Origin: a virus
Taxonomy: Duplodnaviria > Heunggongvirae > Uroviricota > Caudoviricetes
Reading direction: 5' to 3' (one strand)
DNA length: 44,174 nucleotides
Virus record (IMG/VR): IMGVR_UViG_2706794694_000015
The notes beneath the pieces are model-generated. The model was not told where the DNA came from, did not search any database, and saw only the letters and a list, made by a program, of their open reading frames with translations. Positions 6,671 through 43,400 of the stretch are shown here, one piece after another. The translations under genes and the position numbers were made by a program. The stretch's first letter is position 1; each line of letters starts with the position of its first letter.

Positions 6671-7159
6671 ATGTTGGATGTATTTACTCCATTGTTGAAA
6701 CTTTTTGCTAACGAGCCACTCGAAATACTTATGTATACGATTATCATTTTTGGTCTCACTCTCTGGCTGATACCGAAAGAGTTTACTGTCGCATTCAATG
6801 CTTATACTGAAATACCTTGGCTCTTTCAGATTATCGTTTTTGCCTTTTCTTTCGTGGTCGCCATTTCCTTCTCAAGATTGCGAGCACATATTCAAAAGCA
6901 TTATTCATTACTACCAGAGCAACGAGTATTGCTTCGTTTATCTGAGAAAGAAATCGCTGTATTTAAAGATTTCCTTAAAACAGGAAATCTTATTATCACT
7001 TCTCCTTGCCGTAACCCGGTTATGAAAAAATTAGAACGGAAGGGCATCATTCAACATCAGAGTGATAGCGCAAACTGTTCTTATTATCTCGTCACCGAAA
7101 AATACTCCCATTTTATGAAGTTATTCTGGAACAGCAGGAGTAGACGTTTTAATCGTTAG
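6671..7159 (+). CDS. sieB: SieB superinfection exclusion protein, 162 aa from MLDVFTPLLKLF...
   Basis: Track ORF 6548..7159; internal ATG at 6671 gives recalled SieB; hydrophobic N-terminal half. Confidence 0.88.
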   Translation: MLDVFTPLLKLFANEPLEILMYTIIIFGLTLWLIPKEFTVAFNAYTEIPWLFQIIVFAFSFVVAISFSRLRAHIQKHYSLLPEQRVLLRLSEKEIAVFKDFLKTGNLIITSPCRNPVMKKLERKGIIQHQSDSANCSYYLVTEKYSHFMKLFWNSRSRRFNR

Positions 7160-7311
7160 CTTACTGTGTGCTTCTCCAACCATCGGCGCGCACCAGTTTC
7201 GGTTTTAAATGTTTTGCTTTTGGTATACGTCATGGCAGTGAACGTTCCATCCTGGTTGGGGAACACGCCGCACACCAGGGATTCGTTGTTGCCGAGGTCG
7301 ATTTTTTGCAT
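7156..7311 (-). CDS. ydaF: YdaF-like small protein, 51 aa (MQKIDLGNNESLVCGVFPNQDGTFTAMTYTKSKTFKTETGARRWLEKHTVS)
   Basis: Hand translation; convergent with and overlapping the sieB stop; not in track (under 60 aa). Confidence 0.7.
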   Translation of the reverse strand: MQKIDLGNNESLVCGVFPNQDGTFTAMTYTKSKTFKTETGARRWLEKHTVS

Positions 7312-7321
7312 TTTGCGAATC

Positions 7322-7456
7322 TCACATCTTGTTGCTGTGTATAGCGACTTCTGCCTGCCAGAGATCCCAGTCGTTGCTGCGTAAAGCCTGCACAGCCTGG
7401 TTGTAAGTGATACCGCAACAATCCATCAAATACTGAACTACTTCGTAATGCACCAT
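7322..7456 (-). CDS. ydaG: YdaG-like small protein, 44 aa (MVHYEVVQYLMDCCGITYNQAVQALRSNDWDLWQAEVAIHSNKM)
   Basis: Within track ORF 7322..7504; internal start matches recalled YdaG. Confidence 0.7.
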   Translation of the reverse strand: MVHYEVVQYLMDCCGITYNQAVQALRSNDWDLWQAEVAIHSNKM

Positions 7457-10236: not shown

Positions 10237-10414
10237 NNNNNNNNNNNNNNNNNNNNNNNNNNNNNNNNNNNNNNNNNNNNNNNNNNNNNNNNNNNNNNNN
10301 NNNNNNNNNNNNNNNNNNNNNNNNNNNNNNNNNNNNNNNNNNNNNNNNNNNNNNNNNNNNNNNNNNNNNNNNNNNNNNNNNNNNNNNNNNNNNNNNNNNN
10401 NNNNNNNNNNNNNN
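10237..10414. other. N-run (178 nt): masked sequence or assembly gap
   Basis: Uninterrupted n characters. Confidence 1.
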
Positions 10415-11632: not shown

Positions 11633-11788
11633 ACGTTACTAGATCAAAGAGCATTAGTTCATATGTAAATTGACATTTTTCTGGCACAGGGGAGAGCTAG
11701 CGTGGTTGTCCGCTTTGTGCCAATAGCGGACATTGCTGGCTCATGGTATGTTAGTTTAAGGAGGCAGGTTATGCCCTGTATTTCGCTG

Positions 11789-11797
11789 TGGTATAAT
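11789..11797 (+). promoter_or_regulatory. Candidate extended -10 promoter element (TGgTATAAT) for the cargo operon
   Basis: TGGTATAAT seen directly, about 35 nt upstream of the cargo GTG start; a TTGACA hexamer lies further upstream at 11670..11675. Confidence 0.4.
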
Positions 11798-11830
11798 AGT
11801 TGCGCAATTGATACAAGGGAGCGTTACATC

Positions 11831-12793
11831 GTGAAAATTGTTTTCGAGGTTAATGGAAAGAAAGTTCCACTAAAATCTTTAAAATACATAAGCAAAAAAG
11901 ATCAACTCGAAGTAATGAAAAACTGGTTCTTTGAAAACTTTGAAGATCCGGCAAATGCTTGTCCGTATGAAAGTAGAGAAGGTGGCTATGCTTACATATA
12001 TGGCGGGCCGTATGATGCGAGCGAAGAACTACAATCCATCTTCGGTCAATATGTTAAATCTGAGTATATTGAGGAATTAGTAGATGAATTACAAACACAA
12101 TGTTTTGACTGGTCTGGAAACTCAAATAATATAGATGATTGGTACGATGATGATATCTACGACGCTGTAACGTCTTCCGGTAATCCGTATTTAAAATTCA
12201 TTGATAATATCGATAAAATAAAAAAACTTGCAAAAGATAAAACTGAACAACAGCAAAAAAACCACTTGCTTAGTTTGCTCTACACGAATGTTATTACAGC
12301 TTTGGAAACGCTTTATGTTGAGCTATTCATTAATTCTATAGAGAAAGATGATGTCTACATAGCCAATTGTATAGAAAAAGGTAAGACTGAATTTAAAGTA
12401 AGCAAAGATATTGCTGCGTTGCCTTTCAAGGGTGAACCCATCGAGAAAATTAGGGGAGAGCTAATCAGGTCAATCAAGGAACACTTGATCAGTGCAAGCT
12501 GGCATAGCACTAAAAAGGTAATCGACCGCTATGAAGCTACATTCGATATAAAAGTACAAAAAGACTGTCCGATAGAAGCTATTGAATTGGCAACCCTCAA
12601 TCGAAATCACTTAGTGCATCGTGGTGGAAAGGATAAAGAAGGGAACCTCGTAGTGATTACAGACCAGGATCTTGAAACGCTGATTGAAAATGCATCGAAC
12701 CTGGCAATTATGCTCTACAACAGTTTAAATGTAGCAACGAATAAAACCACCATTTTGCAACCAGATGACAAACCGTTCATTCATGAATTTTAA
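11831..12793 (+). CDS. Cargo gene A: unknown protein, 320 aa, AT-rich; C-terminal helical region with R-x4-H (HEPN-like?) motif
   Basis: Long ORF (track 11702..12793); GTG at 11831 preceded by AAGGGAG at 9-nt spacing; LNRNHLVHRGG encoded at 12599..12631. Confidence 0.7.
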   Translation: MKIVFEVNGKKVPLKSLKYISKKDQLEVMKNWFFENFEDPANACPYESREGGYAYIYGGPYDASEELQSIFGQYVKSEYIEELVDELQTQCFDWSGNSNNIDDWYDDDIYDAVTSSGNPYLKFIDNIDKIKKLAKDKTEQQQKNHLLSLLYTNVITALETLYVELFINSIEKDDVYIANCIEKGKTEFKVSKDIAALPFKGEPIEKIRGELIRSIKEHLISASWHSTKKVIDRYEATFDIKVQKDCPIEAIELATLNRNHLVHRGGKDKEGNLVVITDQDLETLIENASNLAIMLYNSLNVATNKTTILQPDDKPFIHEF

Positions 12794-12808
12794 TAGCGCA
12801 GGTCATAC

Positions 12809-13810
12809 ATGGATATTCGCACACGAAAGACAAAATTTTTAGAGTCGTTAGATTCAACTGAAGTGATACGCAAAGCAGTAAGTCTCGCTATAGATTGCAT
12901 TATTGATAATCATAATAGTAATGAAGATACCCCCTTAGTTATTACCAGCTATGATGATCTCTGTAGAATCCAGGTGCTAAATTATGTACAGGAGTTTTGC
13001 GAAGCTGCATTCCCTGATATGGATGAATATTACTTTAGTCCTAACATACTTCGCATCAACGGCAAGACTAGTGAAGAAGCTTGTATTAACTTAATTAAAC
13101 TCTTAAGAAGTACAAAAGGCATGCTATTCTGGTCCGATGCCCCATCGTGGTTCGCTAGCCTCCCCGACGGATTATTCCATGTTGTTAACATTGATCAAAA
13201 AATCGTTACTCGCGGCCTTAATAAGAAAAACTCTAAGCCGACAATAATCAATAAAGATTACAGTGTAGATACACTACTATCAGAGCTATTTTTGAATGGC
13301 GCACACATGGAGCAACCCAACGTACACAACGTTTCTGAGGGAAACATGAAGTTCTATGATGAATGCCATGCTGGATTAATCAGACCAATACCCGCTCCAA
13401 TAGGCGCGTCATACGATGAAGAGATCACAATTAATTCTCCAGATTGGCAAAAGCTCGCGTGTGTAGCTTTACGCCGCTATCAGTCGAAGGAATGTCATGA
13501 CGGAATGCAATGGGATACAACCGATCATGGTTGGACTGATGTAATCGCGTATCCATTCGTCGAAGAAATACAATCAATGGATAATAGTGGTTATCGACAA
13601 TGTTTAGTTGGGCTGGTCACAATAAACAATTCAAATGCAAATTCTCCGTACCTATCTACCGTTTGGATACATCCATTTTATCGCAGGAGAGGGTTATTAA
13701 GTAAGTTATGGCCAAAATTACAAGAGTTATATGGAAGTAACTTCGAAATTGAGCGACCTAATGAAAATATGAAAGCATTTCTGAAAAGTGCGAAACACGC
13801 AGATTACTAA
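12809..13810 (+). CDS. Cargo gene B: unknown protein, 333 aa, AT-rich; C-terminal segment resembles a GNAT acyltransferase core
   Basis: Full ORF 16 nt downstream of gene A; C-terminal VWIHPFYRRRGLLSKLW...NENMKAFLKSAKH resembles GNAT motifs A/B. Confidence 0.7.
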   Translation: MDIRTRKTKFLESLDSTEVIRKAVSLAIDCIIDNHNSNEDTPLVITSYDDLCRIQVLNYVQEFCEAAFPDMDEYYFSPNILRINGKTSEEACINLIKLLRSTKGMLFWSDAPSWFASLPDGLFHVVNIDQKIVTRGLNKKNSKPTIINKDYSVDTLLSELFLNGAHMEQPNVHNVSEGNMKFYDECHAGLIRPIPAPIGASYDEEITINSPDWQKLACVALRRYQSKECHDGMQWDTTDHGWTDVIAYPFVEEIQSMDNSGYRQCLVGLVTINNSNANSPYLSTVWIHPFYRRRGLLSKLWPKLQELYGSNFEIERPNENMKAFLKSAKHADY

Positions 13811-14769: not shown

Positions 14770-15582
14770 AACCACCTCCTCCAAAACATGCATTAAAAAT
14801 GCATCTTTTGGAGGGTTATGTCAAGCTGTTATGAAACACATAATTGATATGTTGATTAGAGGAGAAGATAGAATAAATATGGTTGTTTTTCGTATAACTA
14901 TTTGTTTTACTTTTAGTTTATGCATTCTGTGTGTTAGGAATAAGTTATTAAAGTTTAATCAAAAAATCTCGATGTAGTCCACATAGATTACTGTTACTGA
15001 ACCTTATTGTGTGTATTAGTTGTGTTCTGAAATTTCAGCTTAATTATTTATGATGTATTTTTTAACGATAAATATTTTCCCAGGATACCTTTACTGTGTA
15101 TATAAATAAATTATATACGCATAAATAATGTAAAGGCGTCCTTTTAGATATATCTTATCAAATGTTAATGACTTGAGTGGGAAATATGATTCCAGCAACT
15201 TATCATGTGGCTACTTTATAAAAATAATGCCCATATAAAACAACAAGCGAAAAGGATTACGGATAAAAAAGGAGCGAGATGTGCGAACTTGTTATTTTCC
15301 ATGTTTAACCACCTTAAATAATTGATGATGACGGGATGATTGCATCTGTAATGCTTTTATTGAAATGTTATGATAAAAAAGAACTTTTGCATAACATTAA
15401 AATGTAATTTATCTAATCGTTTTTAATAATAAGTGTCGTATTTCTATCCTTGTACCAGCTATTTGATATGTAGTGTTTGTTCATGCTATGTGGGGCTTTA
15501 CACCATAGCCAGTTTATTTATACTTTATTCGTCAGCCTGAACAACTGGCATCTGCTGCGCTGCGCCATCGAGAGATTGAGAA

Positions 15583-16182: not shown

Positions 16183-16472
16183 TGGTGAATTTACGTAAAG
16201 CGGCTAAAGGCCAGATGTGCCAGATCAGAATCCCTGGCTACTGCAATCACAATCCCGAAACCTCTGTGCTGGCGCATTACAGGCTGGCGGGGACGTGCGG
16301 AACAGCGACAAAACCACATGATATGCAGGCGGCGATAGCCTGTAGCTCATGCCACGATCTAATCGACGGGCGGGTAAAAACCAGCGATTACACCAAAGAA
16401 GAATTGCGCCTGATGCATGCTGAAGGGGTTTTTCGCACACAAGAAATCTGGAGAAAGAAAGGTCATTTATGA
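16182..16472 (+). CDS. YbcO-like Cys/His-rich protein (DUF1364, putative nuclease), 96 aa
   Basis: 96-aa ORF with multiple Cys/His; same length as recalled DLP12 YbcO; overlaps the following gene start. Confidence 0.6.
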   Translation: MVNLRKAAKGQMCQIRIPGYCNHNPETSVLAHYRLAGTCGTATKPHDMQAAIACSSCHDLIDGRVKTSDYTKEELRLMHAEGVFRTQEIWRKKGHL

Positions 16473-17011
16473 TTTACCCAACGAATACAGGAAAAAGCGG
16501 AGAACACCTTCGCCTCACCACGCTGGAAAGTGTCTGGATTCAGGGAAAACTACGTATGTGGGGGCGCTGGTCGTATATTGGCGGTGGCAGGTCAGGGAAT
16601 ATGTTCAATCAGTTGTTGGCATCCAAAAAACTGACGAAAACAGCCATTAATGAAGCCCTGCGCAGAATGAAAAAAGCGGGAATAGAGAAAGCTGAGCTGG
16701 AAGCGTTTTTGCGAGAGATGATCAACGGCAAGCAAAAGAGCTGGCTGGCGCATTGTACTGATGCAGAGGCGTTATGTATTGATCGAGTCATAAGTGAGGT
16801 GCTGGCAGAGCATCCAGGATTGATTTGCATTCTCCGGCAACGCTATGAAGGGCGGGGGATGACTAAGCGCAAAATGGCTGAATTGCTAAATGATGCACAC
16901 CCAGAGTGGTGTTTTAGCACATGCGAAAAACGGATTGCTAATTGGTTAGCTGTTGCTGAGTATGCCCTATATATTCCCATGCGTGAATCATTTGCTGAGA
17001 AAATGGCTTGA
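16469..17011 (+). CDS. Putative late-gene antiterminator Q-like protein (phage 21/82 type), 180 aa
   Basis: Last gene before about 1 kb of non-coding DNA with intrinsic terminators and then the lysis cassette; Cys-containing C-terminal half; assignment rests mainly on position. Confidence 0.55.
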   Translation: MIYPTNTGKSGEHLRLTTLESVWIQGKLRMWGRWSYIGGGRSGNMFNQLLASKKLTKTAINEALRRMKKAGIEKAELEAFLREMINGKQKSWLAHCTDAEALCIDRVISEVLAEHPGLICILRQRYEGRGMTKRKMAELLNDAHPEWCFSTCEKRIANWLAVAEYALYIPMRESFAEKMA

Positions 17012-17091
17012 TTTCTTACGTATAAACTGCTTCAATTTTGCTATGCTTCGCAAAGCTGTATCGCGAGGCGGATTGCAGACATGGACATCGT

Positions 17092-17118
17092 AAAAAAACC
17101 GCTTAATGCGGTTTTTTT
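17092..17118. terminator. Bidirectional intrinsic terminator (tR'-like) about 85 nt downstream of the Q-like gene
   Basis: AAAAAAACCGC-TTAAT-GCGGTTTTTTT: GC stem flanked by A-run and T-run. Confidence 0.65.
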
Positions 17119-17438
17119 ACGTCAGGAAAGCAGGGGAGAATGCTGCTAGTTGGGCAACTGGTCTTTCTGCTCCAAATTATAACAGAGACCAGTTATAGTT
17201 TCGGTGCTGTGTTTTTTTTACAATATTGTGATAACACATTGCTGGCGGGAGTTTTGATATTTCTTGGCAGGGGCTGATGATGCGTTATCCTGATGTCGTC
17301 AACTCATATAAAATGAGATGAGAGATCATTGCAGGGTGGTTTGTAATTCGCTGTTTAGCGGGACAATATGTTGTCTGATACAAGACACCCGACGCCTCAG
17401 ATTACTATAATAAAGACGAAGCATCCTTTGTATTGACC

Positions 17439-17465
17439 AACCGCCTGTTTAGGCGGTTCTTTTTG
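17439..17465 (+). terminator. Second intrinsic terminator in the Q-to-moron leader
   Basis: AACCGCC-TGTTTA-GGCGGTT followed by CTTTTT. Confidence 0.55.
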
Positions 17466-17996
17466 GGCTGGTTTATTGTATGCCAAATGATTATTAAAAA
17501 GGTTGTGTTAATAACAAGATCCGAAATAATATGCCTGCATATTTTTATCTTGCTTATATTCTGCATATTGTGCATAGCAGGCTCATCCCTGCAATCAAAA
17601 CTGTATGATGAGTATTTTTTGTTTTCCTTTTTTCCAGTCATCTGATGATGACCTGCTTCTTTTTAATCCGGATCGACATCAGTTTTTTAAGATAATTCCT
17701 GCGAGTTATATGCATAAATGCCACAAACTCCGCATTTTATGTGGTTGGGAGTTGCCGGGCGCGCAGTGAGTTTGCTAAGAAAACTCCTGCATGGTGAATC
17801 CCCCTGTGCGGTGGGGTGATACCATTAACCTTTTCTGTCGCCGACAGGTATCACGAACATTTTGTTCACCGGGAGGCACCCGGCACCATGCACTTCAATA
17901 GATTCTCTCCACATTATGGATATTCTTTCAGAATATCCCACGCAGACTTTGTGTAAATGTTAACAAATGTGCGTTTTATTTGATCTGATTCGCTGT

Positions 17997-18024
17997 TTGA
18001 GCGTCCAAAACAACGGTATATATA
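17997..18024 (+). promoter_or_regulatory. Candidate sigma70 promoter for the lipoprotein moron
   Basis: -35 TTGAGC (17997..18002), 16-nt spacer, -10 TATAAT (18019..18024), about 30 nt upstream of the ATG at 18056. Confidence 0.45.
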
Positions 18025-18055
18025 ATCCTTTACTATATGACATATGTGAGGAAAA

Positions 18056-18484
18056 ATGGGTTTTCGTAGCGCATCAATTCTTACGTTGATTATTAGTGGG
18101 ATTATTATCGGGTGCACTGATGCTGTATCGACAAATTATCATGACCGTACATCATATTACTCCGATAAAGCAATAGAGACACAGTATGTGAGTTCATCTG
18201 AACGTACTTCTGATGTTAGTGAGGATATCCGTCTGTATGCCCATCAAATCAAGAGCGCCATCGAAAAACAGTTCGGGGATGCGAGTAAGTATTCAGGAAA
18301 AGAGTGTACACTGAGAATGCATATGGCCCCGAATGGCCTTCTACTGGAGGTTAAAAGAGAAAGTGGAGACCTCGATTTATGTCGTGAAGCGATGAATGCG
18401 ATAAAGAATGCTGATATACCTGCCCCCCCTTCGCCGGAAGTATATAAAGTATTTCAAAATGGGGTGCTGGATTTTAAACCCTGA
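18056..18484 (+). CDS. Lipoprotein with TolA C-terminal domain (domain III)-like region, 142 aa
   Basis: Signal peptide with lipobox IIIGC; C-terminal YAHQIKSAIEKQFGDASKYSGKECTLRMHMAPNGLLLEVK...LCREAMNAIKNADIPAPPSPEVYKVFQNGVLDFKP closely resembles the recalled TolA C-terminus. Confidence 0.75.
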   Translation: MGFRSASILTLIISGIIIGCTDAVSTNYHDRTSYYSDKAIETQYVSSSERTSDVSEDIRLYAHQIKSAIEKQFGDASKYSGKECTLRMHMAPNGLLLEVKRESGDLDLCREAMNAIKNADIPAPPSPEVYKVFQNGVLDFKP

Positions 18485-18634
18485 TATTTATTGTTTTGTA
18501 ATAAACGGTTTCGGCTTAGGTTTGTTCTGACACAGCTACGGCACTGAGCTAAATTTAGCGGATAGTCAGCTCTGAGCCAGTGGCGGACGTAACAACTACT
18601 ATTGCTGAGATTTTAATGGATTGAGGAGCAAGAA

Positions 18635-19030
18635 GTGGGATTAAAGAAAATCGTTATGTTGACTTTTTGGGTCGGTTTTGTTGCGGGATGCACACCTTTA
18701 CACCCTTCAGATTGCCACAAAACTACTGCTACAGGTAGTTGCAGTTCAGGACGCTGGGATGATCAGGATGAATGGGGGGCGCAAGCGCGGGGAATCAGAG
18801 CTGCAATTAATGCCAAACTTGATGAGCCGCATAACTGGAAAGGGAAAAAATGCAGGTTGCATATGGAATTCTCTCAGGATGGCACGGCGTTAAAAATATC
18901 TACCAGTAACGGTGATAAAGCCTATTGCGAAGCGATAAAGTCCGCAGCTCATAAAGCCAAATTTCCGGCCTTCAACAATCCGGAAGTCTACAGAGATTTT
19001 CAGAAATCTGGCTTTGACATGCGAGGTTAG
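18635..19030 (+). CDS. Paralogous TolA-C-like lipoprotein, 131 aa, GTG start
   Basis: GAGGAG RBS then GTG; lipobox VAGC; C-terminal KKCRLHMEFSQDGTALKI...YCEAIKSAAHKAKFPAFNNPEVYRDFQKSGFD shares the motif pattern of the upstream gene. Confidence 0.7.
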   Translation: MGLKKIVMLTFWVGFVAGCTPLHPSDCHKTTATGSCSSGRWDDQDEWGAQARGIRAAINAKLDEPHNWKGKKCRLHMEFSQDGTALKISTSNGDKAYCEAIKSAAHKAKFPAFNNPEVYRDFQKSGFDMRG

Positions 19031-19281
19031 CTCTTCAATTACTATATCTCATTCATAGCAAACTGACAGATTTGATGATGTTCTATATACGAAACCTGTG
19101 ATGTCAAGTCTGAGCTAATACAAATAAACATAATATCAGAGAAATACATTTTATTAGCTCGCTACGGCGAGCTTTTTATATTGCATCGTCTCCAGCATAT
19201 ATATCAATTAAGGCTCTGATTGATGTGTCTGAAAGCCTACACATAATAACTATGCCATCCGTTCCGTGCGGAGGTGAGGCT

Positions 19282-19497
19282 ATGAAATCCATGGACAAAA
19301 TTTCAACAGGCATTGCCTACGGCACCTCCGCAGGCAGTGCTGGCTACTGGTTTTTACAGTTGCTCGATAGAGTAACTCCGTCACAGTGGGCTGCAATCGG
19401 TGTGCTGGGTAGTCTGGTATTTGGCCTGCTGACGTACCTGACAAACCTTTATTTCAAGATTAAAGAAGATAAGCGCAAGGCTGCGAGAGGTGAATAA
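19282..19497 (+). CDS. S: Class II holin / pinholin (phage 21 S21-like), 71 aa with dual-start motif MKSMDK
   Basis: Within track ORF 19225..19497; [26 protein letters not shown]...[11 protein letters not shown] matches recalled S21; stop overlaps endolysin start. Confidence 0.85.
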
Positions 19498-20018
19498 TGC
19501 CTCCATCATTACGAAAAGTCGTTGCTGCTGCTATTGGTGGCGGAGCAATTGCTATAGCATCAGTGTTAATCACTGGCCCAAGTGGTAACGATGGTCTGGA
19601 AGGTGTCAGCTACATACCATACAAAGATATTGTTGGTGTATGGACTGTATGTCACGGGCATACAGGAAAAGACATCATGCTCGGTAAAACGTATACCGAA
19701 GCAGNNNNNNNNNNNNNNNNNNNNNNNNNNNNNNNNNNNNNNNNNNNNNNNNNNNNNNNNNNNNNNNNNNNNNNNNNNNNNNNNNNNNNNNNNNNNNNNN
19801 NNNNNNNNNNNNNNNNNNNNNNNNNNNNNNNNNNNNNNNNNNNNNNNNNNNNNNNNNNNNNNNNNNNNNNNNNNNNNNNNNNNNNNNNNNNNNNNNNNNN
19901 NNNNNNNNNNNNNNNNNNNNNNNNNNNNNNNNNNNNATATGCTGGCGGTAAGCAATGGAAAGGTCTCATGACTCGTCGTGAGATTGAGCGTGAAATCTGT
20001 TTGTGGGGTCAGCAATGA
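19497..20018 (+). CDS. R: SAR endolysin (phage 21 R21-like lysozyme), interrupted by N-run
   Basis: N-terminal signal-anchor-release segment [27 protein letters not shown]...; C-terminus [26 protein letters not shown]; same frame on both sides of the Ns. Confidence 0.85.
19705..19936. other. N-run (232 nt) inside the endolysin gene
   Basis: Uninterrupted n characters. Confidence 1.
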
Positions 20019-20479: not shown

Positions 20480-20616
20480 AATCTTAACTACAATATGATT
20501 CATTTTGATGATTGTTTCATAAGGAACAGTGAAGTAAGATCTAAGAGGAGTTAAATTTTATACAGTATAATCATAATATTGCAGCAAGGTGGTTATAATT
20601 GAAAGAATATTTAGAT

Positions 20617-22074
20617 ATGAATACATCTCATGTAAGAGTTGTTACTCATATGTGTGGGTTCCTGGTTTGGCTCTATAGTCTTTCAATGTTGCCACCAATG
20701 GTTGTAGCATTGTTTTATAAAGAAAAAAGCCTGTTCGTTTTCTTTATAACTTTCGTTATATTTTTTTGCATTGGTGGCGGAGCGTGGTATACAACTAAGA
20801 AATCTGGCATTCAATTACGTACCCGTGATGGGTTTATTATAATTGTAATGTTTTGGATTTTGTTTTCTGTTATTAGTGCATTCCCTTTATGGATTGACTC
20901 AGAACTTAATTTAACGTTCATTGATGCTCTGTTTGAAGGGGTTTCTGGAATAACAACAACAGGAGCAACTGTAATTGATGATGTTAGTTCATTACCTCGG
21001 GCATATTTGTACTATCGGTCACAGTTAAATTTTATAGGTGGTTTAGGAGTTATTGTTCTGGCGGTTGCAGTATTGCCATTATTGGGTATTGGTGGTGCAA
21101 AGCTTTATCAGTCAGAAATGCCGGGGCCATTTAAGGATGACAAACTCACTCCCCGCCTGGCCGATACGTCACGGACACTGTGGATAACTTATTCTTTATT
21201 AGGTATTGCTTGTATTGTCTGTTATAGACTTGCAGGAATGCCTTTGTTTGATGCTATTTGTCACGGGATTTCCACAGTTTCGCTTGGTGGTTTCTCAACT
21301 CATAGCGAGAGTATCGGATATTTTAATAACTATTTGGTTGAGCTGGTGGCTGGTTCTTTTTCCCTGCTATCGGCTTTCAACTTCACTCTTTGGTATATTG
21401 TTATTAGCAGAAAAACGATAAAACCTTTAATCAGAGATATTGAACTTCGTTTCTTTCTGTTAATAGCCTTAGGGGTGATCATTGTTACCTCTTTCCAGGT
21501 CTGGCATATAGGTATGTATGACTTGCATGGAAGTTTTATTCATTCGTTTTTTCTTGCCAGCTCCATGCTCACTGATAATGGTTTAGCTACGCAGGATTAT
21601 GCAAACTGGCCCACGCACACGATAGTGTTTTTGCTGTTGTCAAGTTTCTTTGGGGGATGTATAGGTTCAACCTGTGGTGGAATTAAGTCACTTCGATTTC
21701 TTATACTTTTCAAACAAAGCAAACACGAGATAAATCAGCTTTCTCATCCCAGAGCGTTGTTGAGTGTAAATGTAGGAGGGAAGATAGTTACAGATCGTGT
21801 AATGAGGTCTGTATGGAGTTTCTTTTTTCTTTATACTCTCTTCACGGTGTTTTTTATACTGGTGTTAAATGGTATGGGATATGATTTTCTTACATCATTT
21901 GCAACAGTGGCTGCATGTATTAATAATATGGGATTAGGTTTTGGGGCTACTGCATCGTCATTCGGAGTGCTTAATGACATTGCAAAATATTTAATGTGCA
22001 TAGCTATGATTCTTGGTCGCCTTGAAATTTATCCTGTTATTATATTGTTTTCAGGTTTTTTTTGGCGCTCCTAA
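20617..22074 (+). CDS. trkG: TrkG potassium-uptake protein (Rac prophage paralogue of TrkH), 485 aa from MNTSHVRVV...
   Basis: Polytopic membrane protein; sequence and length match recalled K-12 TrkG; AT-rich; sits directly after Rz/Rz1 as in K-12. Confidence 0.9.
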   Translation: MNTSHVRVVTHMCGFLVWLYSLSMLPPMVVALFYKEKSLFVFFITFVIFFCIGGGAWYTTKKSGIQLRTRDGFIIIVMFWILFSVISAFPLWIDSELNLTFIDALFEGVSGITTTGATVIDDVSSLPRAYLYYRSQLNFIGGLGVIVLAVAVLPLLGIGGAKLYQSEMPGPFKDDKLTPRLADTSRTLWITYSLLGIACIVCYRLAGMPLFDAICHGISTVSLGGFSTHSESIGYFNNYLVELVAGSFSLLSAFNFTLWYIVISRKTIKPLIRDIELRFFLLIALGVIIVTSFQVWHIGMYDLHGSFIHSFFLASSMLTDNGLATQDYANWPTHTIVFLLLSSFFGGCIGSTCGGIKSLRFLILFKQSKHEINQLSHPRALLSVNVGGKIVTDRVMRSVWSFFFLYTLFTVFFILVLNGMGYDFLTSFATVAACINNMGLGFGATASSFGVLNDIAKYLMCIAMILGRLEIYPVIILFSGFFWRS

Positions 22075-22211
22075 TATATGGCTGATTTATAATTGTGAGT
22101 TTAATATTATGTTGACTCACTCATTGATCCAATACCTAACTTTACCAGCAACACCTCCGCCCCCAGTAGCACTGGCTGCTGGGGTGCGTTTTATTCATAA
22201 AGCAAGGCTGT

Positions 22212-23000
22212 ATGAGCGAGAAATTAAAGATAGTCTATCGCCCATTACAAGAATTGTCACCGTATGCGCACAACGCCAGGACGCACAGTACTGAGCAGGT
22301 GGCACAACTGGTAGAAAGTATTAAGCAATTCGGCTGGACTAATCCGGTGCTGATTGACGAAAAGGGCGAAATTATTGCGGGTCACGGTCGTGTTATGGCG
22401 GCTGAAATGCTCAAAATGGATTCTGTTCCGGTCATTGTTCTGTCTGGCCTGACGGATGAGCAGAAAAAGGCGTACCGCCTGGCAGATAATCGCCTGCCGA
22501 TGAATGCTGGCTGGGATGAAGATCTGTTGCGGATGGAGCTGTCGGACCTAATCAATGCTGATTTTGATGTCTCCCTGACAGGCTTCATCCCGGCAGAAAT
22601 TGATGAACTGTTGACGGATGTTTTGCCCGGTACAGGAAATGAGGAGGAGCCGTATACGACGAAAATTGATACGCCTGTTTATGAGCCGTCAGGCGGTAAA
22701 CCGGATATCAGTGAACTGTACGACGATACGAAAACTCAGGAGCTGATCAGCCGGATACGTTCGGCGTCCCTTGATCCTGATATTGAGAAATTCCTCCTGT
22801 GTGCAGCAGAACGTCACACGGTGTTTAATTTCAGCAGAATTGCGGACTATTACGCTCATGCCCCCGCTGAAATTCAGTGCCTTTTCGAGGAGTCGGCGCT
22901 GGTGATCATTGATTATCAGCAGGCTATTGAAAATGGATTTGTCCGAATGACGCAGCGCATGGTGGAGATCATGCATGGCGGGGAGGAGGAATATGCGTGA
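22212..23000 (+). CDS. ynaK: ParB N-terminal (ParB/sulfiredoxin-like nuclease) domain protein, 262 aa; likely intact YnaK
   Basis: ParB-box-like motif IIAGHGRVMAA; K-12 identity is a recollection. Confidence 0.65.
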   Translation: MSEKLKIVYRPLQELSPYAHNARTHSTEQVAQLVESIKQFGWTNPVLIDEKGEIIAGHGRVMAAEMLKMDSVPVIVLSGLTDEQKKAYRLADNRLPMNAGWDEDLLRMELSDLINADFDVSLTGFIPAEIDELLTDVLPGTGNEEEPYTTKIDTPVYEPSGGKPDISELYDDTKTQELISRIRSASLDPDIEKFLLCAAERHTVFNFSRIADYYAHAPAEIQCLFEESALVIIDYQQAIENGFVRMTQRMVEIMHGGEEEYA

Positions 23001-23925
23001 TGATTTTTGCGCCTTTATTCTGACTCACGGGCGACCGGACAAAGTTCTGACTTACCGGACGTTGCGTCGTGCTGGCTATACCGGGAAAATTTTTATCGTT
23101 GTTGATGATGAAGATAAGACACGGCATCAGTACATGGCTGAATTTGGTGAACAGGTGCTGGTATTTTCCAAAGCCGATATTGCTAGTCGTTTTGACGAAG
23201 CCGATAATTTTAGTGACCGCCGCTCAATTTTTTACGCCCGTAATGCCTGTTTCGACCAGGCAAAACTGGTCGGGTGTAAATACTTCATTCAGCTCGATGA
23301 TGATTATCACGAGTTCCAGTTTCGGGTGGATCGCAACTATGACCAGGCCTATTTCCCGATAAGGAAACTGGATGAGATCCTTTCTGAAATGCTTGCGTAC
23401 TACGAATCAATACCTGCTCTTTCCATCGCTATGTCGCAGGGCGGGGATTTTCTTGGTGACAATGGCGGCCATGCTTCGTGGGTGAAACGCAAGGCAATGA
23501 ACAGCTTTATCTGTTCGGTTGATCGACCGTTCTCATTCATGGGGCGCATTAACGAGGATGTGAATACGTACACGAATCTCGGTCGCTGTGGTGAATTGTT
23601 TATGACGATCGGTGCTGTCCAGTTAGGGCAGAAACAGACGCAGAAAAACAGCGGCGGAATGACCGAGCTGTATCTGGATTCCGGAACCTACGTTAAAAGT
23701 TTTTACTCCGTCATGTATGCGCCGTCGTGCGTAAAAATCTCACTTATGGGTGCCAGTCATAAACGCATTCACCATCAGGTCACCTGGAACAACGCTGCAG
23801 TAAAAATCCTTCACGAAAAATACAGGAAGAAGACACCCTGCATATCAATGGGGGTGACAAATGATTCCGTATTCGAAAGTCGAGTCTCTGGCAGCGTGCC
23901 GGATGACTGCACAACAAATCGCTGA
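22993..23925 (+). CDS. Hypothetical protein with GT-A glycosyltransferase-like signatures, about 310 aa; possibly intact YdaY
   Basis: ATG at 22993 behind GGAGGAGG; FILTHGRPD N-terminal strand and DxD-like QLDDDYHEF motif; overlaps the ParB-like gene end. Confidence 0.55.
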   Translation: MRDDFCAFILTHGRPDKVLTYRTLRRAGYTGKIFIVVDDEDKTRHQYMAEFGEQVLVFSKADIASRFDEADNFSDRRSIFYARNACFDQAKLVGCKYFIQLDDDYHEFQFRVDRNYDQAYFPIRKLDEILSEMLAYYESIPALSIAMSQGGDFLGDNGGHASWVKRKAMNSFICSVDRPFSFMGRINEDVNTYTNLGRCGELFMTIGAVQLGQKQTQKNSGGMTELYLDSGTYVKSFYSVMYAPSCVKISLMGASHKRIHHQVTWNNAAVKILHEKYRKKTPCISMGVTNDSVFESRVSGSVPDDCTTNR

Positions 23926-40464: not shown

Positions 40465-43400
40465 ATGGGTAAAGGCAGCAGTAAGGGGCATACCCCGCGC
40501 GAAGCGAAGGACAACCTGAAGTCCACGCAGCTGCTGAGTGTGATCGATGCCATCAGTGAAGGGCCGGTTGAAGGTCCGGTGGATGGATTAAAAAGCGTGC
40601 TGCTGAACAGTACGCCGGTGCTGGACAATGAGGGGAATACCAACATCTCCGGCGTCACGGTGGTGTTCCGGGCAGGTGAGCAGGAGCAGTCACCGCCGGA
40701 GGGGTTTGAATCCTCCGGCTCCGAGACGGTGCTGGGTACGGAAGTGAAATATGACACGCCGATCACCCGGACCATCACGTCGGCAAACATCGACCGTCTG
40801 CGCTTTACCTTCGGTGTACAGGCACTGGTGGAAACCACCTCAAAGGGAGACAGGAATCCGTCGGAAGTCCGCCTGCTGGTTCAGATACAGCGTAACGGTG
40901 GCTGGGTGACGGAAAAAGACATCACCATTAAGGGCAAAACCACCTCGCAGTATCTGGTCTCGGTGGTGGTGGATAACCTGCCTCCGCGCCCGTTCAGTAT
41001 CCGGATGCGCAGGATGACACCGGACAGCACCACAGACCAGCTGCAGAACAAAACGCTCTGGTCGTCATACACCGAAATCATCGATGTGAAACAGTGCTAC
41101 CCGAACACTGCACTGGTCGGCGTACAGGTGGACTCGGAGCAGTTCGGCAGCCAGCAGGTGAGTCGTAATTATCATCTTCGCGGGCGCATTCTGCAGGTGC
41201 CGTCGAACTATAACCCGCAGACGCGACAATACAGCGGTATCTGGGACGGAACGTTAAAACCAGCATACAGCAACAACATGGCCTGGTGTCTGTGGGATAT
41301 GCTGACCCACCCGCGCTACGGCATGGGGAAACGTCTTGGTGCGGCGGATGTGGATAAATGGGCGCTGTATGTCATCGGCCAGTACTGCGACCAGTCAGTG
41401 CCGGACGGCTTTGGCGGCACGGAGCCGCGCATCACCTGTAATGCGTACCTGACCACACAGCGCAAGGCGTGGGATGTGCTCAGTGATTTCTGCTCGGCGA
41501 TGCGCTGTATGCCGGTATGGAACGGGCAGACGCTGACGTTCGTGCAGGACCGACCATCAGATAAGGTGTGGACCTATAACCGCAGTAATGTGGTGATGCC
41601 GGATGATGGCGCGCCGTTCCGCTACAGCTTCAGCGCCCTGAAAGACCGCCATAATGCCGTTGAGGTGAACTGGATTGACCCGGATAACGGCTGGGAGACG
41701 GCGACAGAGCTTGTGGAGGATACGCAGGCCATTGCCCGTTACGGTCGTAACGTCACGAAGATGGATGCTTTTGGCTGTACCAGCCGGGGGCAGGCACACC
41801 GCGCCGGGCTGTGGCTGATTAAANNNNNNNNNNNNNNNNNNNNNNNNNNNNNNNNNNNNNNNNNNNNNNNNNNNNNNNNNNNNNNNNNNNNNNNNNNNNN
41901 NNNNNNNNNNNNNNNNNNNNNNNNAAACGCAGACCGTGGACTTCAGCGTGGGCGCAGAAGGGCTTCGCCATGTGCCGGGCGATGTCATTGAAATCTGTGA
42001 TGATGACTATGCGGGTATCAGCATCGGCGGGCGCGTGCTGGCGGTAAACAGCCAGACCCGGACGCTGACGCTCGACCGTGAAATCACGCTGCCATCCTCC
42101 GGTACCATGCTGATAAGCCTGGTTGACGGAAGTGGCAATCCGGTCAGCGTGGAGGTTCAGTCCGTCACCGACGGCGTGAAGGTGAAAGTGAGCCGTGTTC
42201 CTGACGGCGTTGCTGAATACAGCGTGTGGGGGCTGAAGCTGCCGACGTTGCGCCAGCGCCTGTTCCGCTGTGTGAGTATCCGTGAGAACGATGACGGCAC
42301 GTATGCCATCACTGCCGTGCAGCATGTACCGGAAAAAGAAGCCATCGTGGATAACGGGGCGCACTTTGACGGCGACCAGAGCGGCACGGTGAATGGTGTC
42401 ACGCCGCCAGCGGTGCAGCACCTGACTGCCGAAGTCACCGCAGACAGCGGGGAATATCAGGTGCTGGCGCGCTGGGACACGCCGAAGGTGGTGAAGGGGG
42501 TGAGCTTTATGCTTCGCCTGACCGTGGCAGCGGATGACGGCAGTGAGCGGCTGGTCAGCACGGCCCGGACGACGGAAACCACATACCGCTTCACGCAACT
42601 GGCGCTGGGACGGTACACGCTGACAGTCCGGGCGGTAAATGCCTGGGGACAGCAGGGCGATCCGGCGTCGGTATCGTTCAGGATTGCCGCACCGGTAGCA
42701 CCGTCGCGGATTGAGCTGACGCCGGGCTATTTTCAGATAACTGCCACGCCGCATCTTGCGGTTTATGATCCGACGGTACAGTTTGAGTTCTGGTTCTCGG
42801 AAACGCGGATTACCGATATCAGGCAGGTTGAAACCACAGCCCGCTACCTTGGCGCGGGGCTGTACTGGATAGCCGCCAGTATCAATATCAAACCGGGCCA
42901 TGATTATTACTTTTATATCCGCAGTGTGAACACCGTTGGCAAATCGGCATTCGTGGAGGCCGTCGGTCGGGCGAGCGATGATGCGGAAGGTTACCTGGAT
43001 TTTTTCAAAGGCAAGATAACCGAATCCCATCTCGGTAAAGAGCTGCTGGAAAAAGTTGATCTGACGGAGGATAACGCCAGCAGACTGGATGAGTTTTCGA
43101 AAGAGTGGAAGGACGCTAACGATAAATGGAATGCGATGTGGGGCGTCAAAATTGAGCAGACCAAAGACGGCAAACATTATGTCGCGGGTATTGGCCTCAG
43201 CATGGAGGACACGGAGGAAGGCAAGCTGAGCCAGTTTCTGGTTGCCGCCAATCGTATCGCGTTTATTGACCCGGCAAACGGGAATGAAACGCCGATGTTT
43301 GTGGCGCAGGGCAACCAGATATTCATGAACGACGTGTTCCTGAAGCGCCTGACAGCCCCCGCCATTACCAGCGGTGGCAGTCCTCCGGTATTTTCCCTGA

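Follow-up and report, generated by a model that had tools for sequence, protein, structure and literature searches.

Two intact TolA domain III lipoproteins form a mobile prophage cassette and are tentatively proposed to act as outer-membrane decoys

The 44,174-nucleotide stretch recorded as IMG/VR virus record IMGVR_UViG_2706794694_000015 (hereafter the window) belongs to the Rac-like lambdoid prophages of Escherichia coli. Between its Q-like late antiterminator gene and its holin gene lie two open reading frames, ORF1 and ORF2, each encoding a short protein in which a lipoprotein signal peptide precedes the C-terminal domain of the host protein TolA (TolA domain III, or TolAIII). The identity of this domain, its fold, the lipobox, the mobility of the cassette that carries both genes, and purifying selection on them were all observed in this study. 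From there, we infer a localisation, a ligand-binding activity, and a phenotype: ORF1 and ORF2 would serve as outer-membrane-tethered TolAIII decoys that confer tolerance to Tol-dependent colicins and/or filamentous phages, a function to which we give just short of an even chance. The two reading frames and their parts are as follows.

18056..18484, plus strand: ORF1, 142 amino acids (aa), ATG start, with a Shine-Dalgarno-like GAGGA at 18048-18052
18113-18115, plus strand: cysteine codon of the ORF1 signal peptide, followed by a disordered linker (residues 21 to ~50)
18206-18481, plus strand: TolAIII domain of ORF1 (residues 51-142)
18635..19030, plus strand: ORF2, 131 aa, GTG start, with GAGGAG at 18623-18628, 6 nt 5' of the GTG
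18689-18691, plus strand: cysteine codon of the ORF2 signal peptide, followed by a linker containing C27 and C36
18752-19027, plus strand: TolAIII domain of ORF2 (residues 40-131)

Both reading frames were confirmed at the coordinates that an earlier note, made from the letters of this DNA, had given for them. That note had also likened the ends of both proteins to TolAIII, and the likeness was borne out by Pfam PF06519 (TolA C-terminal), pairwise alignment, and AlphaFold2 models; the TolA C-terminus quoted there matched the PDB sequence. Against a PF06519 gathering cut-off of 25 bits, ORF1 scored 82.6 bits (expect value, E, of 2.4e-23) and ORF2 scored 54.6 bits (E 1.3e-14). When ORF1 was compared with PDB sequences, its residues 55-142 aligned with E. 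coli TolA 334-421 without a gap (E ~1e-27), and the matches included chains crystallised with M13 g3p (1TOL), If1 g3p (2X9A), and colicin A (3QDR). Pairwise alignment gave 60% identity between ORF1 and E. coli TolA 336-421 over 86 aa, and 34% identity between ORF2 and the E. coli TolAIII segment. The cysteine pair of TolAIII (equivalents of C363 and C388) was invariant in the alignment of both ORFs. The two proteins had been described as paralogous; they do belong to one domain family, but they are only 29% identical in pairwise alignment, and ORF1 resembles host TolA more than it does ORF2.

Structure prediction, which had been put forward as a check, returned the TolAIII fold for both proteins. 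AlphaFold2 modelled residues 51-142 of ORF1 with a predicted local distance difference test score (pLDDT) of ~90 and residues 40-131 of ORF2 with a pLDDT of ~93; the N-terminal 50 and 39 residues, respectively, were of low confidence. When the models were compared with the PDB by using Foldseek, E. coli TolAIII ranked first in both cases (template modelling score, TMt, 0.8-0.9; root-mean-square deviation, rmsd, 1.1-2.2 A). The ORF1 model matched 3qdp, 2x9a, and 1tol with TMt 0.8-0.9, and the ORF2 model matched 3qdp with TMt 0.90 and rmsd 1.1. The C-terminal domain of TonB has a distantly related fold and also works by strand augmentation, but the matches to TolAIII were far stronger in both sequence and structure: TonB C-terminal domains fell far behind TolAIII for both models (E >0.1 versus 1e-8 in Foldseek), and the Pfam TonB_2 match to ORF1 was weak. 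A fold search of BFVD found no significant viral homologue, and the only significant PHROG for the two proteins was phrog_5772 (function unknown).

ORF1 and ORF2 share with E. coli TolA (PDB 1S62, 3QDP/3QDR, 1TOL, and 2X9A) the domain III fold and its disulfide pair, and ORF1 also keeps the strands beta2 and beta3. In contrast with TolA, both proteins lack the transmembrane anchor, the SHLS motif region, and the helical domain II, and full-length TolA architecture is thus absent from both. The match to the TolA model was limited to positions 293-386 of 387, and ORF1 reached 107.8 bits where the NF007065 cut-off is 213. The genes also lie outside any tolQ-tolR-tolA-tolB-pal operon, between the phage Q-like gene and the holin gene, and their products are predicted to be lipid-anchored in the membrane opposite to that of TolA and uncoupled from the proton-motive force.

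As sequence features, the lipoprotein signal peptides that had been noted for both proteins held up, and the lipobox cysteine was conserved in homologues. The N-terminus of ORF1 reads MGFRSASILTLIISGIIIG up to C20-T, with the lipobox IIIG-C20, and that of ORF2 reads MGLKKIVMLTFWVGFVAG up to C19-T, with the lipobox VAG-C19; in each, the n-region is short and basic and the h-region hydrophobic. The lipobox cysteine was invariant in 14 of 14 aligned homologues, the rest of the signal peptide being variable. By the pattern [LVI][ASTVI][GAS]C with no Asp at +2, the lipobox was kept in 116 of 119 ORF2-family proteins, in which the +2 residue was A, S, T, G, or V, and Asp in none. In E. coli, a lipoprotein without Asp at +2 is sorted to the outer membrane, and outer-membrane sorting is therefore predicted for the ORF1/ORF2 family. 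Because the transmembrane anchor and domain II of TolA are missing and only the last ~95 model positions were matched, ORF1 and ORF2 are predicted to be outer-membrane TolAIII lipoproteins on a tether of 25-30 residues, with no link to the TolQR motor. As a separate feature of the ORF2 family, a C-x7-C-x8-C motif starting from the lipobox cysteine (window positions 18689-18742, residues 19-36) was present in 116 of 119 homologues and absent from ORF1; the motif suggests a disulfide-bonded mini-hairpin in the ORF2 tether.

Both genes are under purifying selection. By the Nei-Gojobori method, the ratio of nonsynonymous to synonymous substitution rates (dN/dS) was 0.26-0.39 for ORF1 overall and 0.12-0.35 within its domain, and 0.05-0.15 for the ORF2 domain. 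Moreover, variants of ORF1 at 91% and 66% identity both kept the length of 142 codons and the lipobox.

The two genes are carried on a cassette with the following elements.

17946..19281, plus strand: conserved mobile cargo unit (promoter region, ORF1, intergenic spacer, ORF2, terminator)
17997..18026, plus strand: sigma70-like promoter candidate, TTGAGC-18 nt-TATAAT, matching 10 of 12 consensus positions
19156..19178, plus strand: intrinsic terminator, a 7-bp GC-rich stem followed by a T-run, which closes the cassette

This cassette is a discrete mobile cargo unit that sits in different prophage backbones, as is characteristic of a moron. In 761 of 5,426 complete E. coli genomes (14%), the 1.6-kb region was fully covered at ~99-100% identity, and a sensitive blastn search with the ORF1 domain detected ORF1-type genes in 897 of the same 5,426 genomes, about one in six. 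Across 80 IMG/VR prophage loci, 77-80 had the unit at 17946-19281 with 98.7-100% identity; by comparison, the Q gene of the window was common to only 38 of 73 and its Rz gene to only 35 of 61 of these loci. Homology to phage mEp460_ev081 spanned 17865-19498, so that the cassette and holin were inherited together, with a different Q and a different endolysin, and the cassette was found behind at least two different Q modules. Its GC content is 0.39-0.45, compared with ~0.5 in the flanking phage genes. Among 50,697 phage records, ORF1 occurred in one. The terminator folded at -13 kcal/mol (z -4.1), a stability reached in 0 of 200 shuffles; no significant structure was found by folding in the ORF1-ORF2 spacer. 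For the promoter, a spacing of TTGAGC-16-TATAAT had been given earlier, and this needs amendment: the actual arrangement is TTGAGC-18-TATAAT or, with 16 nt, TTGAGC-16-TATATA.

The same slot, 3' of Q and 5' of the holin gene and beside STnc100-type elements, holds the morons stx and nanS-p in lambdoid and Stx prophages, but the products of ORF1 and ORF2 are mimics of a host domain rather than a toxin or an esterase. ORF1-type variants were always found in the Q-to-lysis slot of lambdoid prophages, without ORF2, and their neighbours included an AraC-type regulator, a nanS-p-like esterase, tRNAs, and further copies of STnc100; in one locus (L015), the variant lay directly 5' of a SASA/DUF1737 (nanS-p-like) esterase gene. 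ORF2 moves as a single gene, and its homology to plasmids spans only 18600-19034, that is, the ribosome-binding site and the gene. A copy ~88% identical to ORF2 is present on ~600 E. coli and Shigella plasmids. On IncI1/B/O and IncK2/Z plasmids (loci L003 and L004, ~7000-7430), it directly follows the nikA-nikB relaxase operon, and on the IncK2/Z plasmid its position is inside the transfer region, with nikB on one side and trbC on the other. On pO157 of E. coli O157:H7 SS52 (locus L022, 5965-6396), the ~88%-identical gene lies between a psiA/hok leading-region remnant and toxB. The ORF2 family further comprises 368 clusters at 90% identity in Citrobacter, Enterobacter, Serratia, Klebsiella, and Raoultella, and its members are 78-88% identical across genera. 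In Serratia marcescens (loci L009 and L010, 8001-10736), the chromosomal ORF2-type gene adjoins a GmrSD-family gene and a HEPN-domain gene in a setting resembling a defence island.

A third, distant TolAIII lipoprotein was found on the Klebsiella pneumoniae IncFIB/IncFII plasmid pMR0617ctx (locus L021, 5217-6246). It has 144 aa, the lipobox ITA-C, and the C-terminus ALDFRL, and its gene sits after a thioredoxin-fold gene; 'tolA' genes of this lineage are present on ~310 Klebsiella and Enterobacter plasmids, the one examined being IncFIB/IncFII. When 1.84 billion representatives were scanned by using HMMER, 333 relatives were found. Of the 146 that were newly listed, 69 were 95-175 aa long, and at least 44 of these 69 carried a lipobox, as opposed to 3 of 62 long TolA-like proteins. 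Where a name was given to the short lipoproteins examined in Serratia, Kosakonia, Hafnia, and Klebsiella, it was 'cell envelope integrity protein TolA'. A protein profile search seeded with the alignment gave nothing beyond the ORF2 family among the matches listed. Since many short lipobox-bearing relatives were found across genera and are labelled only 'TolA', the short TolAIII lipoproteins are a broad and essentially unstudied class.

How these proteins might act can be approached through the known ligands of TolAIII. Both g3p N1 and the N-terminus of TolB add a strand to TolAIII beta3 (PMC7391070), and colicin A pairs a strand of its own with beta2 (TolA 375-380) and makes cation-pi contacts to K368, K379, and K396 (PMC3365938). 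The affinity between TolA and TolB is weak (dissociation constant 40-200 uM; PMC7391070), and colicin A binds TolA at ~1 uM (PMC7391070, PMC3365938). Binding of TolB has been linked to Y352 (Y353 in the numbering used here) and V407/408 (PMC2707214). In the ORF1 family, two of the three cation-pi lysines, K379 and K396, were kept, and K368 was replaced by H or Y; the beta2 strand was retained as LLEVKR (LL(E/Q)VKR in the family; LLDIKP in TolA) and beta3 as NGVLDFKP (NAPLDFKP in TolA). The TolB-linked tyrosine was replaced in both families, by G, K, or R in that of ORF1 and by Asp in that of ORF2. Because the contact residues and the beta2 and beta3 strands are kept in ORF1 and not in ORF2, ORF1 appears to copy faithfully both edges at which parasites bind TolAIII, and ORF2 looks like a diverged relative.

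If the two proteins act as decoys, the cassette would be transcribed in the lysogen from its own promoter and, as its position suggests, would be read through under Q antitermination after induction. ORF1 and ORF2 would be exported and lipidated and would end up in the inner leaflet of the outer membrane, from which a free TolAIII on its flexible tether of 25-30 residues would reach into the periplasm, uncoupled from the TolQR motor. The TolA-binding epitopes of invaders (g3p N1 and the translocation domains of group A colicins) would appear on the periplasmic side of the outer membrane and dock by beta-strand augmentation on the decoy rather than on energised TolA; import would stall, and the lysogen would be tolerant. 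ORF1 would be the close mimic of E. coli TolAIII, and ORF2 an older, diverged version with a probably different range of ligands. Colicin translocation domains come out of the porins on the periplasmic side of the outer membrane, which is also where g3p N1 arrives once the pilus has retracted; a motor-less TolAIII tethered to this membrane would be well placed to intercept both. Given that TolA binds TolB weakly and colicin A more tightly, and that the TolB-linked tyrosine is replaced, a modest amount of decoy could catch the parasites without crippling Tol-Pal.

Several precedents bear on this proposal. In 1993, Levengood-Freyermuth, Click, and Webster reportedly found that free periplasmic TolAIII gave tolerance to colicins E1, E2, E3, and A. 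Their cells are said to have contained an uncoupled TolAIII in the periplasm beside wild-type TolA, as would be the case here, and to have become tolerant to group A colicins; the construct was reportedly artificial, soluble, and overproduced, whereas ORF1 and ORF2 are natural, predicted to be lipid-tethered, present as two diverged copies, and mobile. Small outer-membrane lipoproteins are also familiar as accessory gene products of temperate or lytic coliphages: Cor (phi80, N15, and HK022), Llp (T5), and lambda Bor protect the host against incoming phages and colicins that enter by the same route, and Cor and Llp do so by binding the receptor FhuA and inactivating it. ORF1 and ORF2 are likewise small predicted phage lipoproteins, but no homology to Cor or Llp was found in the PHROG search, they have no relation to Cor, Llp, or Bor in sequence or fold, and they imitate a host import protein. 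Lastly, periplasmic g3p N1 gives resistance to colicin A and phage, which was ascribed to sequestration of TolA (PMC10424213). The step blocked there, the contact between TolAIII and its ligand during entry of colicin A and Ff phage, is the same one, but the arrangement is a mirror image: pIII occupies host TolA, whereas a TolAIII decoy would occupy the TolA-binding epitope of the invader.

The plasmid settings offer further, circumstantial support, because TolA-dependent filamentous phages have conjugative pili as their primary receptors. For If1, these are I-type pili, and PDB 2X9A is the complex of If1 g3p N1 with TolAIII; the occurrence of TolAIII lipoproteins on conjugative plasmids is suggestive in this regard. 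The spread over prophage backbones, IncI-complex plasmids, pO157, Klebsiella IncF plasmids, and the GmrSD/HEPN setting in Serratia also fits portable, host-protective cargo. A more general extension, which we regard as doubtful and offer as speculation, is that these genes amount to an unrecognised form of entry immunity on mobile elements of Enterobacterales, in which outer-membrane-tethered TolAIII copies would soak up the TolA-binding epitopes of filamentous phages and group A bacteriocins, conjugative plasmids (IncI complex, Klebsiella IncF) would offset the vulnerability to phages created by their own pili, lambdoid prophages meanwhile stacking two diverged versions to widen the range.

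A number of observations weigh against a decoy function. In Enterobacter (loci L005-L008), the ORF2-type gene stands alone on the chromosome among ordinary metabolic and regulatory genes, outside recognisable mobile elements, a setting at least equally compatible with a physiological role. In the ORF2 family, all three colicin A contact lysines are lost (E, S, and Q/H at these positions), and beta3 has diverged to KSGFDMRG. Strand augmentation is mostly backbone-mediated, so that binding is not reliably predictable from sequence. The free TolAIII of Levengood-Freyermuth and colleagues reportedly also made the cells leaky, and a decoy may therefore carry a cost. When the PADLOC-DB v2 defence models were searched, no match was found at E up to 1, and full-text literature searches found no functional study of the ORF1 or ORF2 proteins. 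As for expression in the lysogen, promoter-like sites were not significantly enriched (11, versus 6.6 +/- 2.7 in shuffles), and the promoter candidate was kept in close variants of the cassette only and not in the 66%-identity variant of ORF1.

One other explanation is that the proteins modulate Tol-Pal. A tethered TolAIII would bind the TolB N-terminus or CpoB and damp the mobilisation of Pal, with altered outer-membrane stability or vesiculation in the lysogen, or a weakening of the outer membrane late in infection that aids lysis and release. The position of the genes, 3' of Q and directly 5' of the holin, endolysin, and spanin genes, where strong late expression is expected, speaks for this, as do the chromosomal ORF2-type genes in Enterobacter and the fact that TolB uses the same beta3 edge as g3p, which is well conserved in ORF1; the periplasmic leakage said to have followed from free TolAIII in 1993 would fit as well. 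On the other hand, the same genes occur on plasmids and chromosomes without lysis genes nearby, the TolB-linked tyrosine is replaced in both families, and the affinity between TolA and TolB is very low. ORF1 and ORF2 are missing from many lambdoid phages that have the same lysis cassettes, and they are therefore not needed for lysis. We consider modulation of Tol-Pal unlikely as the function of the pair.

It is also conceivable, although again improbable in our view, that the TolAIII/TonB-like fold now serves a different ligand unrelated to the partners of TolA, such as the N-terminal strand of another periplasmic or outer-membrane protein, a component of conjugation or of a pilus, or a phage protein that does not depend on TolA. 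ORF2 is the likelier case, and for this protein the idea deserves to be taken seriously: its contacts have diverged at 34% identity to TolAIII, yet the family is held at 78-88% identity across genera with dN/dS of 0.05-0.15, its linker carries the extra conserved cysteine pair, and an ORF2-type gene lies inside the IncI-complex transfer region between nikB and trbC. For ORF1, the 60% identity to host TolAIII with both binding edges kept argues against such a change of ligand, and no alternative ligand was suggested by the data obtained here.

The last alternative, that ORF1 is a truncated fragment of tolA and ORF2 a hitch-hiking reading frame, draws on the label that the NCBI Prokaryotic Genome Annotation Pipeline (PGAP) gives to the 3' 261 nt of ORF1, and is effectively refuted, since ORF1 is intact with its 142 codons, Shine-Dalgarno-like sequence, signal peptide, and lipobox, its 66% and 91% variants keep length and lipobox at an overall dN/dS below 0.4, host tolA is undetectable at the DNA level with the ORF1 domain as query, and the cassette is conserved at ~99-100% in 761 genomes.

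The annotation of both genes in RefSeq was examined in genomes with 100% identical DNA. ORF1 is entered there as a pseudogene, 'tolA, incomplete, missing N-terminus' (PGAP), at 18224-18484. ORF1 exceeds the cut-off of NCBIfam TIGR02794 (75.6 versus 59.45), which may be the reason for its 'tolA' label. A tolA pseudogene was rejected as an explanation of ORF1 because the reading frame is intact, length and lipobox are constant in variants, and dN/dS is low. A recent capture from host tolA was rejected as well: in the sensitive blastn search of the 5,426 E. coli genomes, the ORF1 domain matched ORF1-type genes only and never chromosomal tolA, and ORF1 is thus not a recent piece of it. For ORF2, RefSeq places the start at an internal ATG (18656), seven codons late, giving a span of 18656-19030 and losing the basic n-region. 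The longer reading frame is preferred because an ATG occupies the position of the window's GTG in the plasmid homologues; ORF2 needs the GTG start for a proper predicted signal peptide. The pseudogene call and the late start need correction whatever the function of the proteins. In the literature, a PLoS One 2024 paper that linked 'TolA' to an induced CP-933O gene proved to be a false lead; according to its supplement, the gene encodes a tail fibre protein.

The resemblance to TolAIII is itself already captured by automated annotation and cannot count as a novelty. Apparently new are the recognition of intact lipoprotein-TolAIII fusions, the pseudogene mis-call of ORF1, the spread over prophages, IncI and IncF plasmids, and pO157, and the decoy mechanism. 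If ORF1 and ORF2 are indeed decoys, about one-sixth of E. coli strains, the pO157 plasmids of enterohaemorrhagic E. coli, and hundreds of IncI and Klebsiella IncF plasmids would carry a broad tolerance factor that is hidden in annotation as 'TolA' or 'tolA pseudogene'. This would bear on colicin and bacteriocin therapeutics, on hosts for M13/Ff tools and phage display, on competition among gut E. coli, and on how conjugative plasmids manage the cost of pili exposed to male-specific phages. The cassette would, moreover, offer a clear natural example of a mobile element that captured a host receptor domain and redeployed it as a decoy.

The surroundings of the cassette agree with the earlier placement of both genes in the slot between Q and the lysis genes, with the Q-like gene (phrog_753) upstream and the holin, endolysin, and Rz/Rz1 genes downstream. 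The features on either side are as follows.

16469..17011, plus strand: Q-like late antiterminator gene of the DUF1133 type (phrog_753, 'anti-termination protein Q-like', E 2e-79; DUF1133 family in RefSeq)
17759..17945, plus strand: STnc100-family small RNA element (Rfam RF02076, 86.6 bits versus a gathering cut-off of 47, full length)
19282..19497, plus strand: essD-like holin gene (phrog_9876 and phrog_20; essD in RefSeq)

Further upstream of the Q-like gene are NinB-like and HNH/DUF1364 genes, and the holin gene is followed by the endolysin gene, Rz/Rz1, and then trkG. No tRNA was found in the 1-kb gap between Q and ORF1 in the window, whereas related loci do have tRNAs. Runs of masked N occur at 10237-10414, 19705-19936, and 41824-41924, and the second of them interrupts the endolysin gene, which is partly unreadable. 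Just 3' of the Q-like gene, at 17045-17173, there were sub-threshold isrK-like Rfam matches on both strands (~21 bits versus a gathering cut-off of 50), and a terminator-like hairpin was seen at 17439-17458; both may belong to a late promoter/terminator leader.

The STnc100 family has been described as prophage-encoded (bioRxiv 10.64898/2026.05.13.724894). In the window, the 3' part of the STnc100 element, from 17865 on, moves with the cassette, and the left recombination boundary with mEp460_ev081 (17865) falls inside this element. STnc100 elements also adjoin Q-to-lysis cargo in other loci (L018, 5704-5877, 6599-6803, and 6854-7061; L002, 4891-5081), and in one related prophage three STnc100 copies bracket its ORF1-type gene. 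These repeats may be recombination anchors for the exchange of cargo, or leaders of cargo genes.

Two other regions of the window deserve mention. After Rz/Rz1 and before the terminase region (20599-23925), there are three cargo-like genes: trkG (a K+ transporter of the TrkH family, as in the Rac prophage), a gene for a ParB_N-domain protein, and one for a TET-associated glycosyltransferase (TAGT; E 4e-34). A DNA-modification module is suggested by the ParB_N and glycosyltransferase genes. Upstream, at 11702-13810, a pair of reading frames (363 and 333 aa) of low GC content with weak HEPN/RES-NTD and GNAT matches lies 5' of ninB, and a stretch with a GC content of ~0.29 was noted with it at 15000-15500. 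In strain SCU-316, the anti-phage genes IteA/IteS occupy the same region 5' of the ninB-like (DUF1367) gene, disrupted there by an insertion sequence, and the region upstream of ninB may be a defence hot spot.

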